Below are positions 1 through 4,914 of a stretch of DNA of 47,577 bases, piece after piece (the first letter of the stretch is position 1; every line of letters starts with the position of its first letter). Both the position numbers and the translations under genes were made by a program. The notes beneath the pieces are model-generated. The model worked only from the letters and a program-made list of their open reading frames with translations. It made no database searches and was not told the origin of the DNA. The DNA comes from Nitrospirota bacterium. Lineage in GTDB: Bacteria; Nitrospirota; UBA9217. The stretch covers positions 1 through 47,577 of the forward strand of contig JBGOTO010000003.1 in the NCBI GenBank assembly GCA_041476485.1. Reading direction: 5' to 3'.

Positions 1-188
1 GCCTCAGACTTCATTCTGCTCTACCCGACCTATGTAACTCAAGAAATACCAACTGTAGCTGATTTCTCCCATGTTTTGGTTAACAAGTGCGTTTCATTTA
101 CAGCAACATTCGTAAAATCTTTGTTCACATTATCAAGGAACCCCATAATTGTTGTACATATTTCATGGAATGCAGTGTGCGCATCAAT

Positions 189-746
189 CTAATTCTTTAC
201 TGGCTGATAACAGAGCAGTAGAACGCCCAAAGCGAGCGTTTTCGTTTTGACAAGCTCCAGCTTCGTCATGTGCATGCCTTCATTGAAGAAACGCTTCCCG
301 CTCCCCATGAAAATGGGTTGAATTAGGAACTGATATTCATCGATTAGATTGGTATTCATCAGCGCGTGGACGAGACTGGCGCTGCCGGGTATAAGGATGT
401 CGCCGTCAGGTTGCTGTTTCAGTCTCTTGATTTCCTCAATGAAATTGTCTTTGATAATTGTCGAATTATTCCAATTAGCTTCTTTCAGTGTGGAAGAGAC
501 AACATACTTGGGCATGCTGTTAATACTGCTCGCAGGCCCATTGTCATCATTCTTCTGATAGGGCCAATAAGCTGCAAGCATTTCATAGGTTGTTCGTCCA
601 ACGAGGAGGGCACCCGATCCGGATACAGTCGCTTTAATATACTCGCCCCTCTGACCGCTGTTGTAAGGGTTAAACCATTGACTCATTGTATCTGCGTCAA
701 AGACGCCATCCAGCGTCATCCAAGCAGAAACAACTATTCTTCTCAT
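189..746 (-). CDS. Dihydrofolate reductase / RibD C-terminal family protein (probable gene cassette)
   Basis: Motifs MTLDGV, LLVGRTTYE, KYVVSSTL, GSASLV, LIDEY, GSGKRFF are typical of the bacterial bifunctional deaminase-reductase C-terminal (DHFR-like) family; AGGAGG RBS upstream. Confidence 0.9.
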   Translation of the reverse strand: MRRIVVSAWMTLDGVFDADTMSQWFNPYNSGQRGEYIKATVSGSGALLVGRTTYEMLAAYWPYQKNDDNGPASSINSMPKYVVSSTLKEANWNNSTIIKDNFIEEIKRLKQQPDGDILIPGSASLVHALMNTNLIDEYQFLIQPIFMGSGKRFFNEGMHMTKLELVKTKTLALGVLLLCYQPVKN

Positions 747-816
747 GTTTAGCTTCCTCCTATTTTAATTTGTTGTGCTTTCATAGTATCCCTCCGTTGC
801 GCACATTGCATATAAT

Positions 817-1033
817 GAGTCTGTAGGAAAAGTCCCTCTCAAAGCCCCGACGCACCAGGCTTCGTTTAACGCAATTAAACTTCCGCGCTGTCTCTCATGA
901 TGGCCAAGTGAGGAGAAGCCCGTCATTCGGGCTCAGAATCGTCGCCATTACTACTCCTATTAGCATCAGCGAAATTACGTCGCTACCCTCAAAGGGTTAA
1001 AATAAGCCCTTTCAGGGGTTTTTCTACAGACTC
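817..1033. mobile_element. MITE-like element, family A copy 1 (217 bp)
   Basis: Perfect 10-bp terminal inverted repeats GAGTCTGTAG / CTACAGACTC; flanked by AAT and AAC; colinear with 2533-2749; no credible ORF. Confidence 0.85.
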
Positions 1034-1036
1034 AAC

Positions 1037-1254
1037 GAGTCTGTAGAATAAGTCCTTTTTCTAACCCCGGTGCGCTAGAAGCGATACAGTGCAATTAAAT
1101 TCTGGTCGAGTCATTTGTTCTCTATGAGATGCGGGTAAGCCTGCTATTCGGGCATTCCCGCGTTTATATCGTTCCTTCTATTACGATCCTCGACATTGCC
1201 GCTGCTTCCCAGATGAGCAAATTTGGGCTAATTTAGGGGTTTTTCTACAGCTTC
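1037..1254. mobile_element. MITE-like element, family A copy 2 (218 bp), tandem with copy 1
   Basis: Termini GAGTCTGTAGAATAAGTCC and GGGGTTTTTCTACAGCTTC; AAC on both sides; interior more diverged than copies 1 and 3. Confidence 0.85.
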
Positions 1255-1437
1255 AACGCCCCGGTGAGCGGCTGCCCCCGCAGGGGGCAAGTCCGTCTCG
1301 ACCGGTTTGATGGCTCGCGCTGCTTTCGCGCGAGACAGCAGGTCGGCCGCTCACCGGGGCGATGGGCCGCGCGAAGCGCGGGCCATTGCGGTGTTGAGGG
1401 GCCAGCTTCACGGCCCCTCTCGAACACCTTGTTGGTT
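1251..1437 (-). other. Composite / degenerate attC region downstream of cassette 1462-1902
   Basis: Minus strand begins AACCAAC (R'') and ends GTTGAAG (R'); contains two attC-like palindromes and a 16-bp perfect inverted repeat (1257-1272 / 1346-1361). Confidence 0.7.
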
Positions 1438-1461
1438 TGTCGCAGATATAACTCTGTGTCT

Positions 1462-1902
1462 TTAAGCTCCGGATTGTGGGCTTGTATTCCTGCGTGTGAC
1501 AAATATATTCTCTTTGCTGACATGCTTTGAGATTTCGTCGAATAGAGAGTCGGCAAGCGCATCCATTTTAGATTTCATGGCAGGCTCGCGTCCTCTGACA
1601 TCATTCTGCAATACTAACCCAAGGCTTTCTAATCTTTTTTCTGGATATTCTGATTTCGGATAATGACATGTTGCATTGATGCAATTATTTCTTTCCGACG
1701 TGAAGCTTTTTAAGTATGCTGCAAGCAAATAATTGCGGCGTGCTGGATGGGCAATTTCTTGAACGAGAATAAAATGGTCGGCTTTTAAAATATCGATGAT
1801 TTTATCTAAAACCGATTTATCAACGTCATTCACACCAAAGGTAACCCTATATCCCGGATTGAAGAACTTTGACAGTTTATCAAGGAAACCATTTGCGCTC
1901 AT
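1462..1902 (-). CDS. Hypothetical protein (gene cassette), 146 aa
   Basis: ATG at 1902 with GAAAGGGG RBS just after the attC crossover at 1929; the longer ORF-track start runs through the attC and is unlikely; AT-rich. Confidence 0.7.
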   Translation of the reverse strand: MSANGFLDKLSKFFNPGYRVTFGVNDVDKSVLDKIIDILKADHFILVQEIAHPARRNYLLAAYLKSFTSERNNCINATCHYPKSEYPEKRLESLGLVLQNDVRGREPAMKSKMDALADSLFDEISKHVSKENIFVTRRNTSPQSGA

Positions 1903-1922
1903 AGATTCGCGACCCCTTTCAA

Positions 1923-1978
1923 AACTAACGCGGAGTTCACACGCCGCGAAGCGGGCGGCGTGGAACGACAAGTTAACT
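1923..1978 (-). other. attC recombination site (56 bp)
   Basis: Minus strand AGTTAAC-TTGTCGTTCCACGCCGCCCGCTTCGCGGCGTGTGAACTCCGC-GTTAGTT; imperfect palindrome with AAC/GTT cores; the upstream ORF's TAA stop lies inside R''. Confidence 0.9.
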
Positions 1979-2524
1979 TCCAGTCGCCTCACTGTTCAAA
2001 TCTTCCTCAATGCCCGAATTGGCGATCCTTAATTCGTTGTTACTGATGCGATAAATATAATTGTAGCCGGTGACAAAACCGTCAGCTTCTTGGAGAAGAA
2101 GTTCATCATTCGAAATCCAATGGTCTGCATAAATAAATGGCTCGTTCTCGCTTTGGGGCTTAATTTCGGTAAGTTGTTTTTTTCGATCTAGGTCCATGAC
2201 AATTATATGATGAACAGGTCTTAAATCACCAGGACCATCAAGTCCGACGACATTGTAAAAACCTACAAATACTGAATATGCGACATAGCGCCTGTCCGAA
2301 GTCATTAGGTAGCTTTTAACGTTCCCGTCAGCGGACGTAATTTTACTACCGACTTTATCACCGCTAATTTCGTAAAGCTCTCCATCTCTTAAAACTACTG
2401 CGGATGATGTTTGGGTTTTGCTCGGAATTATTTTATTCTTTTGACATTGCGGTAGGAGAGTAACTGTGAATAATAAAAGCAGTATTCTTATCAAATAGAA
2501 GTTGTGCACAGTATTTCCTTTCAC
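1973..2524 (-). CDS. Hypothetical exported protein / lipoprotein (gene cassette)
   Basis: Hydrophobic N-terminus ending in LLPQC; stop overlaps attC R''; an alternative GTG start at 2509 has a GAAAGGA RBS. Confidence 0.7.
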   Translation of the reverse strand: MKGNTVHNFYLIRILLLLFTVTLLPQCQKNKIIPSKTQTSSAVVLRDGELYEISGDKVGSKITSADGNVKSYLMTSDRRYVAYSVFVGFYNVVGLDGPGDLRPVHHIIVMDLDRKKQLTEIKPQSENEPFIYADHWISNDELLLQEADGFVTGYNYIYRISNNELRIANSGIEEDLNSEATGS

Positions 2525-2532
2525 TGATTAAC

Positions 2533-2749
2533 GAGTCTGTAGAATAAGTCCCTTTTTAAGTACCAACGCACCAGGCTTCGCTTAACGCGATAAATCTTGC
2601 GCGCTGTCTCTCGATGATGGTTAGGTGAGATAAAGCTCGTCATCCGGGCCTGGAATCATCGACGACACTATTCTTATTAGCATCAGTGAAAATACGTCGC
2701 CTCCAGAAAGGGCTAAAAAGTGCCTTTCTGGGGGTTTTCCTACAGGTTC
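2533..2749. mobile_element. MITE-like element, family A copy 3 (217 bp)
   Basis: Termini GAGTCTGTAGAATAAGTCCC and GGGGTTTTCCTACAGGTTC; AAC duplicated on both sides (2530-2532, 2750-2752); colinear with 817-1033. Confidence 0.88.
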
Positions 2750-2805
2750 AACGAGCGCGTGAGGGGTGCGTTTTTCAGTGACCATCTCGACACGAGTGGT
2801 TAGAA
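2746..2805 (-). other. attC recombination site (60 bp)
   Basis: Minus strand TTCTAAC-CACTCGTGTCGAGATGGTCACTGAAAAACGCACCCCTCACGCGCTC-GTTGAAC directly after the stop of 2809-3489. Confidence 0.85.
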
Positions 2806-2808
2806 CTT

Positions 2809-3489
2809 TTATTTTTCCCATTCGACGTGAACGTCTTTAATTTCATGGTCGTTGTATGCGGTAACATTGACCCGATAGAATGTTTTTCCTCCAAACGTCG
2901 AGTTGATATTCCAGGACGTGACAGAATATTTATATCCAGAGCCGGTAATTTTTTCTGCCTCAATCTTTGCTTTTTCAGGCGTCTCACCGAAGAGGGATAC
3001 TGACATAATGATCGCAAGTATAACGGGAAGACACCCGCCGAAGATAAACCCGTTTTTAGGCTTGCGCCAAAGCCGCTTATTGTCCACATTATTTTGAGTA
3101 ATGGCAGTAAGGATGACTTCTGAGTTTAATGTTTTGTAGACCCAAATCAAGAATATGATCAACGCAATTGCGATAAAACTGTATGCAATAAAGGCTATCG
3201 GGTAAAGCCTGATGTATGTTGTCATAAGATCGATTGGCGTAAAAAAGGGGAAAAGCACCATCACGCCTATGAATGCACTTGATAAAAAGGCGCTAAACCA
3301 GCTGATGATGCGAACTGATTTTAGATTTCCTCGATACAGATACACACCCGCGATAATGGCAAAAATATTAAAGCTGGAAGAATAGCCTATACTATGGATG
3401 ATGCAATAAATCATGTACGCAACATCGACGGTACCAATAGCGATAAGGGCAATACCGACTTTCTTCATGATTGAACGATAATCATTCAT
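2809..3489 (-). CDS. Hypothetical multi-pass membrane protein (first gene cassette)
   Basis: 226-aa ORF with several hydrophobic segments; AAGGA RBS; bounded by GTTAGAT (3512) and an attC whose R'' (TTCTAAC) is nearly complementary to it. Confidence 0.8.
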   Translation of the reverse strand: MNDYRSIMKKVGIALIAIGTVDVAYMIYCIIHSIGYSSSFNIFAIIAGVYLYRGNLKSVRIISWFSAFLSSAFIGVMVLFPFFTPIDLMTTYIRLYPIAFIAYSFIAIALIIFLIWVYKTLNSEVILTAITQNNVDNKRLWRKPKNGFIFGGCLPVILAIIMSVSLFGETPEKAKIEAEKITGSGYKYSVTSWNINSTFGGKTFYRVNVTAYNDHEIKDVHVEWEK

Positions 3490-3505
3490 GTTCTGTCCTT
3501 TTACG

Positions 3506-3530
3506 ATCTAACCAGTTATTGAGCAGTTAG
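3506..3530 (-). other. attI-like site at the head of the cassette array
   Basis: Minus strand CTAACTGCTCAATAACTG-GTTAGAT; GTTRRRY core with no attC-length palindrome upstream. Confidence 0.55.
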
Positions 3531-3536
3531 GCTCGG

Positions 3537-3664
3537 GTATCTAATATTAGATGCAAACATATAATACTATATACAAGCATCTATTATTATATACCTGCCA
3601 GGTTTATAGTATTAGATGCTTTTTGCTTTTTTCATCTCCCCTACTTGCATCTAATACTATATGC
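3537..3664. repeat. Five 18-bp quasi-palindromes, consensus GCATCTAATATTAGATGC
   Basis: Copies at 3537-3554, 3557-3574, 3577-3594 (20-bp period), 3602-3619 and 3647-3664. Confidence 0.85.
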
Positions 3665-3966
3665 TTTTCCAGCACAGTCCCTTTGATCTTGCCGAATTGA
3701 ATGAACCATAACTTTGCATCCGGGTCCCATCTTCCCCTTGCTGCCCGTGCCTTTTCCTGCAATGCTGTTTCAGCAAACCCGATCCGCACAGGAACAAGTG
3801 TAGTGTCGGAAATCTGCGGCCGAGGTGAGGGTGTCCATGCTTTTTTCTCCACAATGAGCTCAACGGTCTTTGCCCTCGTGCAGCTCGCCCTGTCATACCG
3901 GTAGCGCACGCAGACAAGCGCGTCGCCGTACTCGGACAGCAGCTTTTTCGTTCCGTTTTGTTCCGA
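3604..3966 (-). pseudogene. Small basic protein with DUF5710-like C-terminus, apparently 5'-truncated
   Basis: Frame reads ...EQNGTKKLLSEYGDALVCVRYRYD...KTVELIVEKK...ARGRWDPDAKLWFI; it extends upstream of the track's GTG but meets a TAA near 4003 with no ATG or RBS. Confidence 0.6.
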
Positions 3967-4064
3967 TGAAATATTTAATGCTAAAATCGAACTGCAACAG
4001 CCTTAGTTCAATCGACTGCTGTTTTCTTGCTTGATGGAAGGAAATATTTCGTAGATGTGGCTGG

Positions 4065-4093
4065 AGTATGTGGAACTTTGCAAAAGATGTCAA
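4065..4093 (-). promoter_or_regulatory. Candidate sigma70 promoter firing into the cassette array
   Basis: TTGACA-N17-CATACT on the minus strand; a second TTGACA at 4110-4115 lies within a ~21-bp tandem duplication. Confidence 0.45.
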
Positions 4094-4248
4094 TATCCAA
4101 AAAATCACCTGTCAAGCCAAAAAATCACCGGGGATGGGTATTTTTAGGGGATGTAAAAAGGTAAACAATTTTTTTGGCACAGCCCACAAAGGCTGCAATT
4201 TTACTGCGCGGAAATCGATTCGGCTTTGTCGAGTAGGTGTCGAGGAAG

Positions 4249-4914
4249 TTACCGCTTCTTCGACTTCGGCACGTAGTACCGCGTACCTTGCTTCATGCCG
4301 AGGATCTGCTTGAGCAGGTCGTCGAGGTCTTCCCGCCGATGCACAAAATCGATGTCCGAAGTATTGATGACGAACAAGGGGGTATCGCTGTAGCGGAAAA
4401 AGAACTGGTTGTAGGCCTCGTTCATGGCGGCGATGTAATCGGAATTTACGTCTTTCTCGAAAGATCTGGCGCGCAGCTTGATGCGGCGCAGAAGCGTGTC
4501 CGTGTCGGCCTGGAGAAAGATGACCAGGTCGGGCCGCACGATCTTGGGCTCGAGTATTTTATAAAACTGTTCGTAGAGCGCGAGCTCGTTCTCGTCGAGA
4601 TTGAGGTATGCGAAGATGCGGTCTTTATCGAAGAGGTAGTCGCTGATCGTGATCCGGGTGAAAAGATCGGGCTGGGCCATCTCCTGCTGCTGGCTGAACC
4701 GGCTCAGGAGAAAGAACATCTGCGTCTGAAACCGGTATCGCGCGGGGTCCTTGTAGAAATCGGCGAGAAAGGGGTTGTCCTCCGCGCGCTCGAAGATCAC
4801 CCGGGCGCCGAGTTCCTCGGCGAGCAGGCCCGTCAGGCTTGTTTTGCCCACGCCGATGGGGCCTTCAGTCACGATATATCTGGCATGGAGCGCGGTTTCC
4901 CGTTTCCTGTTCAT
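4249..4914 (-). CDS. Deoxynucleoside kinase
   Basis: P-loop EGPIGVGKTS, FQTQMFFL, PDLVIFLQA; typical position next to folK. Confidence 0.92.
   Translation of the reverse strand: MNRKRETALHARYIVTEGPIGVGKTSLTGLLAEELGARVIFERAEDNPFLADFYKDPARYRFQTQMFFLLSRFSQQQEMAQPDLFTRITISDYLFDKDRIFAYLNLDENELALYEQFYKILEPKIVRPDLVIFLQADTDTLLRRIKLRARSFEKDVNSDYIAAMNEAYNQFFFRYSDTPLFVINTSDIDFVHRREDLDDLLKQILGMKQGTRYYVPKSKKR

Follow-up and report, generated by a model that had tools for sequence, protein, structure and literature searches.

A small gene and phased putative binding sites at the attI-like head of a Nitrospirota cassette array: an apparently undescribed variant of the integron platform

Results

The array head and its surroundings

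The stretch of DNA analysed here, called the window throughout, comprises 47,577 nucleotides (positions 1-47577 of contig C3) of a Nitrospirota assembly of 2.5 Mb in 179 contigs. Its left end is occupied by a cassette array that leaves the contig there and is therefore only partly visible, and to the right of position 4249 lie minus-strand housekeeping genes, the first of which encodes a deoxynucleoside kinase. The G+C content is 0.37-0.50 over bases 1 to ~4200 and ~0.55-0.65 across the remainder of the window. At the head of the array, and read on the minus strand, a small gene is followed by five palindromes, the first two of which overlap its 3' end, by an attI-like core and by the first cassette (Table 1). 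The ORFs to the left of the small gene are co-oriented on the minus strand and unrelated in function; one encodes a RibD_C protein and three have no significant Pfam match.

A search of the array for attC sites returned one clear attC-like site, located between cassette ORFs 2 and 3 and listed here as context only. A heuristic attC scan, which proved unreliable, gave no site in the array and 3+3 false matches in housekeeping DNA, and Rfam gave no match in window 1-4400 at E <= 1. In the junction region between the small gene and the kinase gene there is a weak promoter-like site, TTGACA-17-CATACT at 4093-4065 on the minus strand (1 found vs 1.8 expected in shuffles). In genomes of the same genus, the DNA beside the kinase gene holds neither the small gene with its palindromes nor any similarity to window 1-4300, and the empty site could not be aligned.

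Table 1. Features of the array head and of the adjoining array in the window
Feature	Position	Strand	Remarks
attC-like site, between cassette ORFs 2 and 3	1918..1985	-	GTTAAC..5 nt..stem / stem..5 nt..GTTAGTT; hairpin -13.2 kcal/mol, z -2.2
First cassette ORF	2809..3489	-	226 aa, membrane-like, no Pfam family
attI-like core	3506..3532	-	GCCTAAC-TGCT-CAATAAC-TG-GTTAGAT; predicted crossover GTT 3512-3510
Palindrome P5	3537..3554		20 bp after P4; best copy, 1 mismatch to the 18-mer of the initial annotation
Palindrome P4	3557..3574		20 bp after P3; weakest copy
Palindrome P3	3577..3594		25 bp after P2
Palindrome P2	3602..3619		45 bp beyond P1 (minus-strand reading); overlaps the stop codon
Palindrome P1	3647..3664		in the final conserved codons of the gene (EKHIVLDA)
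Small platform gene, DUF5710-like C-terminal half	3604..3966	-	5'-truncated; no start codon
Junction region, truncated small gene to deoxynucleoside kinase gene	3967..4248	-	holds a promoter-like site pointing into the module

The small gene and its product

The basic reading frame of ~120 aa that the initial annotation had placed at the array head was confirmed, and it reads ...SSEQNGTKKLLSEYGDALVCVRYRYD...GRWDPDAKLW.... Its 5' end departs from that of its relatives. No ATG, GTG or TTG stands in the frame ahead of a GTG at 3909, family codons 1 to ~11 are replaced by unrelated sequence, and the window reads ILALNISSEQNGTKK where all 16 aligned relatives start M(I/K/T)..LKLKPGQ(K/N)GTKK, the canonical homolog start being MITRLKLKPGQ(K/N)GTKK. 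From residue 13 on, the window copy is 97% identical to an intact relative of 128 aa (P0001), and its stop codon falls within palindrome P2.

A second copy of the gene, with an intact start, is found on contig C119 of the same assembly, where it begins 9 bp past a RecX-like ORF (named from sequence only); its first 52 codons are present and are 100% identical to P0001. The two copies agree almost fully from about codon 11 onward and have unrelated sequence ahead of it, and the window copy is therefore taken to be 5'-truncated. In the sediment-metagenome runs X1 and X2, contigs with a 97-98% identical copy continue beyond 3961 into the canonical first codons. The contigs of four runs leave the junction at 3962-4248 uncovered and 3991-4203 without any cover, which says nothing about absence. 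From these two observations, the truncation may be strain-specific, or it may reflect an assembly join across the ~125 bp common to C3 and C119. Given the truncation and the lack of an adjacent intI (see below), the window copy appears to be a decayed relic, with its five sites and attI core intact, and not a working example. The C119 copy, with its intact start, could act in trans.

The family to which the small protein belongs is large. Among proteins of 66-210 aa, 665 of 669 candidates proved to be relatives at E <= 0.001; most are 115-130 aa long, with 60-98% identity to the window copy. When a profile was run against 1.84 billion cluster representatives (clusters at 50% identity), 2,573 reached E <= 0.001 and 1,469 reached E <= 1e-10. 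The C-terminal half (..GRWDP..KLW..) matches Pfam DUF5710 (PF18974), a family without known function, and the likeness is confined to this half. For the family as a whole the match is borderline. The earlier description of the gene as DUF5710-like holds at the gathering cut-off of 26.5 bits for two relatives (P0087, 29.0; P0112, 27.4) and fails for the window copy (20.7), as it does for P0001 (20.4) and for the copy at locus L009 (21.5). The N-terminal half has no family match in Pfam or NCBIfam. In addition, PHROGs returned one weak match of unknown function, PADLOC none and NCBIfam no useful name, and PDB sequences included no relative of the small protein.

The AlphaFold model of the protein (pLDDT 82, pTM 0.48) has two small halves of the beta-alpha-beta-beta type, plus a tail that is disordered. 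When compared with solved folds, it had no Foldseek match at E <= 0.001 and a best VIA-align Z of 3.4, and it matched no known DNA-binding fold. Likeness to Xis/RDF, IHF or Fis was found neither by sequence (Pfam, NCBIfam, PHROGs, PADLOC, PDB) nor by fold search. The protein is predicted to form a symmetric homodimer, with an ipSAE of 0.56 (best control 0.00), a mark that was attained for 20 of 30 proteins solved as pairs, as against 1 of 23 solved as single chains. Contact agreement between runs was at least 95% and partner pLDDT at least 73; the predicted interface is the beta-strand 37-54, in which residue 44 lies opposite residue 44.

Phased palindromes and an attI-like core

The five palindromes are imperfect, 18 bp long, and span 3537-3664 with start-to-start spacings of 45, 25, 20 and 20 bp on the minus strand. 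Thus the five copies described previously, three of them at an exact 20-bp period, are indeed present, the three being P3, P4 and P5. The distance of 25 bp from the last palindrome to the GTT of the first cassette also stands: P5 ends 24 nt before the G, and GTT starts at the 25th nt. The 18-mer given in the initial annotation matches the window three times with <= 3 mismatches (3537, 3577, 3647), where 0.02 matches are expected from shuffling and 0 of 100 shuffles reach 3. A locus-derived consensus (<= 5 mismatches) recovers all five, while the remaining 5,560 nt examined contain no match to it. The half-site of the window palindromes is GCATMTAAT, unlike the GTTRRRY core box, and the palindrome region of the window contains no promoter-like and no terminator-like site.

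Downstream of the palindromes, the attI-like feature that had been proposed was found, and it appears to consist of a conserved ..TAAC..ATAAC-NN-GTTRRRY core with a fixed G|TT at the array head. Cores were detected by regex, as an nhmmer profile from 11 seeds was too narrow (16 of 81 loci). In 12 pairs of loci, sequences are 85-100% identical across the 83 nt through GTT and 21-34% identical afterwards, with the first mismatch 0-1 nt beyond GTT; in one of these pairs both loci belong to a single MAG, and identity upstream of GTT is 100%. Environmental contigs behave in the same manner, as one from X2 departs from the window sequence at 3508 and one from X23 at 3510, other DNA continuing both; X23 is an RNA library, but this is no sign of transcription. 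GTT is the point at which related loci switch cassettes.

Conservation of the module across genomes

One genome per species was scanned; 360 of the 410 pattern matches code for a relative of the small protein, and the best 80 loci were studied. These belong mostly to Geobacteraceae and other Desulfuromonadales and to Nitrospirota, and nearly all have a common layout downstream of the gene. Cultured, non-pathogenic carriers include Geobacter argillaceus ATCC BAA-1139 (locus L036, with intI and 6 sites) and Geomobilimonas luticola JCM 17780 (L053). The presence of genes and repeats of this kind beside cassette arrays in Geobacter-like genomes, mentioned in the initial annotation, is therefore borne out by homologous loci. 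In intact relatives the order is a divergent intI, a promoter-like site, a gene of 115-130 aa, the palindromes, 23-24 nt, the G|TT core and the cassettes; the first palindrome is embedded in the last codons of the gene and the last three follow a 20-bp period.

Palindromes were counted in 81 loci including the window, 77 of them evaluable, with P1 taken at a fixed coding position. At least three sites are present in 62 of the 77, at least four in 55 and at least five in 45, and intact relatives carry 3-7. Fewer than three were counted in 15 loci, some of which are failures of P1 placement, as happens at indels (e.g. L008, L070), and others are degenerate or interrupted. The commonest arrangement is exactly that of the window, 45, 25, 20, 20 (19 loci), and a tail of 24/25, 20, 20 with at least five sites is found in 41 loci; upstream spacings vary from 34 to 68. 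The last palindrome is 23-24 nt from GTT in 39 of the 47 loci with a regex-detected core, and the remaining gaps are 17, 21 and 22 nt (one each) and 44-47 nt (five loci). The ~26 kb of module DNA contain 321 locus-consensus matches, and 670,690 nt of flanks contain 30. Many phased sites at an element border could also mark a transposon end; this reading was dropped, since the sites are palindromic, intact loci have them between intI and attI, and no transposase is found alongside.

The geometry of the sites is constant and their sequence is lineage-specific, with types that include GCATCTAATATTAGATGC, GCATCTACATGTAGATGC, GTTTGTAATATTACAAAC, GTTTATGATATCATAAAC and GCATCCTATATAGGATGC among others; site types sharing this geometry include GCATCTAAT.., GCATCTACA.., GTTTGTAAT.., GTTTATGAT.. 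and GCATCCTAT... Several types may occur within a single MAG, each next to its own protein variant (L020, L025, L061). Within P1, none of the 18 type-A and none of the 18 type-B loci departs from the fixed third codon positions (CAT, ATA, GAT; His, Ile, Asp, and also Lys), while third positions outside the P1 codons have an entropy of 1-2 bits; P1 is thus constrained as DNA. Mutual information between residues and bases links protein columns 5, 6, 16, 30, 38 and 40 to half-site positions 2-3 and 8-9; it was set aside as a sign of protein-base contact, as the groups are clades and the signal is confounded by shared descent.

The palindromes might instead act as folded nucleic acid, either as an RNA hairpin, terminator or attenuator in the leader of cassette 1, or as a single-stranded DNA hairpin or cruciform in the manner of attC, and single-stranded DNA of 3530-3670 does fold at -22.9 kcal/mol (z -6.5). 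A precedent is at hand, as folded attC strands are used in integron recombination according to a passage of a review (PMC8946536). Yet at variable half-site positions, pairing between the two halves is no higher than expected of independent half-sites, and at position 5 it is lower (0.32-0.46 observed vs 0.52-0.56 expected). Such independent variation favours two half-sites read by a dimer on duplex DNA over a hairpin that is conserved. With neither a terminator-like site in the palindromes nor an Rfam match, folding fits poorly and we regard it as highly improbable.

As the comparison shows, the gene, the phased palindromes and the attI-like insertion point form one conserved unit, hereafter the module, which in many genomes is placed between a divergent intI and the first cassette.

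Integrases with and without the module

No intI lies next to the array in the window, and none in the 44 kb to its right. The sole IntI-like ORF of the assembly, on contig C71, scores 227.7 bits against a cut-off of 265 and has an internal deletion. Using this ORF as a tblastn query, we classified the 73 loci whose small gene keeps its N-terminal motif (out of 77 extracted ORFs, the motif being missing in L035, L073, L074 and L083). Upstream of the small gene, a full divergent intI is present in 23 of the 73, remnants in 14, and none within 6 kb in 36. The canonical start of the small gene is kept in 34 of these 36 loci without intI, which have unrelated housekeeping genes upstream, and the window fits this decayed class.

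The check on homologs suggested by the initial annotation thus came out in favour of an association, with at least three palindromes in 62 of 77 loci and, of 73 loci, a full intI in 23 and a partial one in 14. Its broader reading, of a dedicated platform for cassettes, is upheld in part: the conserved unit of gene, palindromes and attI, the co-occurrence and the GTT junction speak for it, whereas in the window itself the gene is broken and no intI is adjacent.

Integrases that adjoin the module are ~480-500 aa long and carry two Phage_int_SAM_4 stretches. For example, the integrase of locus L009 (483 aa, two N-terminal SAM-like stretches) scores 393 bits with TIGR02249 and, being above the 265-bit cut-off, is a true IntI. 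In the order to which the window belongs, 28 of 64 genomes have an IntI above the cut-off. From these we fetched 30 intI loci, and the 19 with at least 700 nt upstream of intI were evaluable. Seventeen of the 19 have no small gene (tblastn, 9 diverse queries, E <= 1e-6), and in these 17 the biggest family of 18-bp palindromes has only 0-2 members, with none reaching 3. The same long IntI is nevertheless present, aligning from residue 1 in 16 of these loci and from residue 3 in L135. A core of the form ..ATAAC-NN-GTT.. lies 130-400 nt from intI in 8 of the 17 by regex and in 6 more as one-base variants seen by eye, and directly upstream of it there is a promoter-like site (TTGACC-17-TATGCT-like, by eye). 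The other two of the 19 have the gene, and one of them, L131, from the genus of the window, has five sites spaced 34, 25, 20, 20. In long platforms, as we call those with the module, the promoter-like sequence (TTGATT-17-TATAGT, by eye) is upstream of the small gene.

The palindromes therefore accompany the small gene, and not the integrase alone. Their absence from the 17 gene-less intI loci points to the module as an optional insertion between promoter and attI core and not as a site set of the long integrase, and since 17 of 19 integrons of the same order do without it while having the same kind of IntI and core, it is not required for recombination. The proposal that the architecture is distinct from the canonical one is also sustained, as the layout differs from the intI-Pc-attI arrangement of the same order.

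These comparisons bear on the possibility that the palindromes are bound by some other factor, with the small gene unrelated to them. The extra N-terminal domain of lambda-type integrases serves arm sites, and the adjacent IntI, with its length of ~480-500 aa and its two Phage_int_SAM_4 stretches, could use an additional SAM-like domain on the palindromes as arm-type sites; alternatively, a host factor could bind them. However, 17 loci have the same long IntI and no palindrome family of three or more, the palindromes are always found alongside the small gene, the two switching type in step, and 36 of 73 modules have no intI nearby. Binding by another factor is hence a poor fit, and in our judgement improbable.

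Discussion

A possible architectural role at attI

We postulate that positions 3506-3966 of the window represent the head of a 'long-platform' array, at which dimers of the small protein on the palindromes would serve as an architectural accessory at attI, a reading drawn from sequence comparison to which we assign a probability of roughly 0.42. In this model, the small protein would dimerise symmetrically and, on double-stranded DNA, recognise the palindromes specific to its own lineage, and about five dimers would coat ~130 bp abutting the integrase-binding core. The resulting intasome-like array could set the geometry or the accessibility of attI for attI x attC recombination. In addition, because the array of dimers would be sited between the promoter and the cassettes, it may also brake read-through transcription. 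An architectural role at attI is favoured by the fixed arrangement of the three proximal sites and of their distance to the crossover, while distal spacings and site number are variable.

Perhaps, on the other hand, the module is purely a transcription gate, in which the small protein is an operator-binding repressor or a roadblock on read-through and has no role in recombination. The small genes look intact without a full intI (36 of 73 loci with none, 14 with remnants), and a role in expression accordingly fits at least as well as one in capture. In integrons without the module the promoter-like site seen by eye is just upstream of the attI core, in the place where long platforms have their palindromes; in long platforms the promoter-like site seen by eye precedes the small gene, which would be the fixed first gene of a cassette operon with the sites in the path of the transcript. 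A roadblock, however, needs no set distance to the crossover, and yet 39 of 47 loci keep it at 23-24 nt whereas upstream spacings range over 34-68, and no promoter-like site lies within the palindrome region of the window. We consider a pure gate unlikely when taken by itself, and nearly as likely as the architectural role.

It is tempting to go one step further than the architectural role and to speculate that the types of protein and palindrome are orthogonal 'address labels', whereby each protein would mark only its own attI and license or block an IntI acting in trans. We hold this extension to be doubtful.

Relation to known recombination systems

The module resembles several known systems in part. 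DR1 and DR2 of attI1, the attachment site of class 1 integrons, are bound by the integrase itself. In the passages of two sources that treat them, these accessory direct repeats are described as supplementary binding sites favouring attI x attC recombination (PMC8946536; PMC3146285). As in attI1, the extra repeats of the module lie directly upstream of a simple site, with inverted core boxes around the GTT crossover. Unlike attI1, which has two direct repeats, the module has 3-7 palindromes that do not resemble core boxes and are tied to a dedicated small gene. An accessory feature of the attI1 type thus appears to be absent, the palindromes being unlike the GTTRRRY core and missing from the 17 intI loci without the small gene. 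The module-less 'short-platform' integrons of the same order share the long IntI, the ..ATAAC-NN-GTT.. core and the start of the cassettes right after GTT. They differ in that 130-400 nt separate intI from the attI core, which has a promoter-like site just ahead of it, and in that small gene and palindrome array are missing (17 of 19 evaluable loci).

The module may also work in a manner similar to lambda-type intasomes, in which Int acts with Xis, IHF and Fis on arm DNA, and phased accessory sites beside the core of a tyrosine recombinase carry small DNA-binding proteins that give the complex its shape. Unlike the sites of the lambda intasome, those of the module are palindromic and lie on one side of the core only, and we found no likeness of the small protein to known accessory proteins. 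In Vibrio cholerae, the attIA x attC reaction needs RecA and an unidentified host factor, as stated in one passage of a review (PMC8946536). The setting is comparable, namely a sedentary chromosomal integron with factors beyond the integrase, but at attIA the missing factor is a host factor and there are no accessory repeats, whereas here the candidate factor would be encoded by the platform. Finally, the array in the window is like a CALIN in that the 44 kb to its right are free of intI and that the one IntI-like ORF present in the assembly is decayed and sits on another contig. Unlike a CALIN, it retains an attI-like head with the platform module, and its left end is off the contig.

In the open literature searched, including passages of PMC3108266 and PMC2426708, we found no printed description of a small protein that is encoded by the platform and has its own sites there. 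The module is a variant of the integron platform that occurs widely and has apparently gone undescribed.

Implications for integron biology

Integrons are described as having three parts: intI, attI and Pc. The module would constitute a fourth, platform-encoded component, in which a conserved gene is combined with phased putative sites 23-24 nt from the crossover. The additional needs of attI x attC recombination in sedentary chromosomal integrons are ascribed, in the relevant passage of a review, to unidentified host factors (PMC8946536). If the address-label idea were true, the small protein would be an integron-encoded specificity factor of a kind that has so far been sought among host factors, and one cell could run several arrays independently, including arrays that have lost their integrase. 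To our knowledge, current tools recognise attI only for a few integron classes. If the small protein is indeed an architectural or gating factor, the module would provide an extra marker for attI annotation, and it would account both for the regulation of such arrays and for the conserved heads of arrays that no longer have an integrase.

Repeats and insertions around the cassette array

The ~220-nt repeats at the cassette-array end of the window (see table) are located between cassette ORFs, in the places where attC sites are expected, and two of the three copies are arranged in tandem. When contigs of sequencing run X6 were compared with the window, their summed depth was high at these repeats, and joints inside the repeat skipped 76-156 nt. 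The repeat could represent a long form of attC or, alternatively, a small mobile element. A G+C-rich stretch is flanked by a cassette ORF on one side and the 220-nt repeats on the other. Folded as single-stranded DNA, it gives a very stable hairpin of -63.8 kcal/mol (z -8.35), with equal stability in 0 of 200 shuffles. The stretch may represent a long attC-like site.

Coordinates of the features discussed
Feature	Location	Strand	Remarks
~220-nt repeat, three copies	window 813-1035, 1034-1260, 2529-2755		terminal inverted repeats GAGTCTGTAG...CTACAGACTC
G+C-rich hairpin stretch, 146 nt	window 1250-1395		single-stranded DNA folding
TTGAACTAAGGC...	window 3967-4010	minus	immediately upstream of truncated small gene
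CCAAAAAATCACC, two copies 20 bp apart	window 4097-4129, 4122-4154
396-aa IntI-like ORF, the only one in the assembly	contig C71 (locus L001, 524-1714)		TIGR02249 coverage
AGTGAAC-N4-GTTCAC(T/C) palindrome	intI loci L121, L128, L131, L134, L135; 20-90 nt from intI start		adjoins TATAGT-like hexamer

Next to the truncated DUF5710-like small gene, TTGAACTAAGGC is similar to TTGAACTAAGCCGC, the start of the attC-like sequences that follow GTT in loci L020, L055 and L087. Integrase activity at a secondary site might have caused the truncation. In addition, the 33 nt adjoining CCAAAAAATCACC share 88% identity with an intergenic stretch of contig C104 (L140, about 1500-1560; ..TCACC.GG.ATGGGTATTTT.AGGG.ATGT..), and CCAAAAAATCACC together with this adjoining sequence may be a host regulatory motif. 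The palindrome array itself is split by an insertion in L014, L062 and L076; because all three insertions begin with the same end sequence (..TGATG(G/C)..TCGTAAGAAGTCA..), an insertion element that targets the module palindromes is suggested.

Integrases and possible links to the SOS response

Integron integrases of the window's order are ~480-500 aa long (4292-5743 in L009, a relative with a full divergent intI, and most intI loci surveyed) and carry two Phage_int_SAM_4 stretches, that is, an extra, duplicated N-terminal SAM-like domain, before a full match to the integron integrase model TIGR02249. The passages of integron literature consulted contained no description of this duplication. 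The C71 ORF matches TIGR02249 at positions 2-221 and, beyond that, only at the last ~20 residues, and is without part of the catalytic region; the small gene is not its upstream neighbour.

The palindrome near the intI start is similar to a LexA box of the GAAC-N4-GTTC type and would be consistent with SOS control of intI. In six integrase-less modules (L008, L052, L059, L061, L062, L072), a LexA-like Peptidase_S24 gene lies directly upstream and co-oriented, and the second small-gene copy of the window genome (contig C119; L089 166-660) starts 9 bp past a RecX-like ORF. Modules that follow LexA-like or RecX-like genes may be orthologous loci, or may reflect a connection to SOS-regulated transcription.
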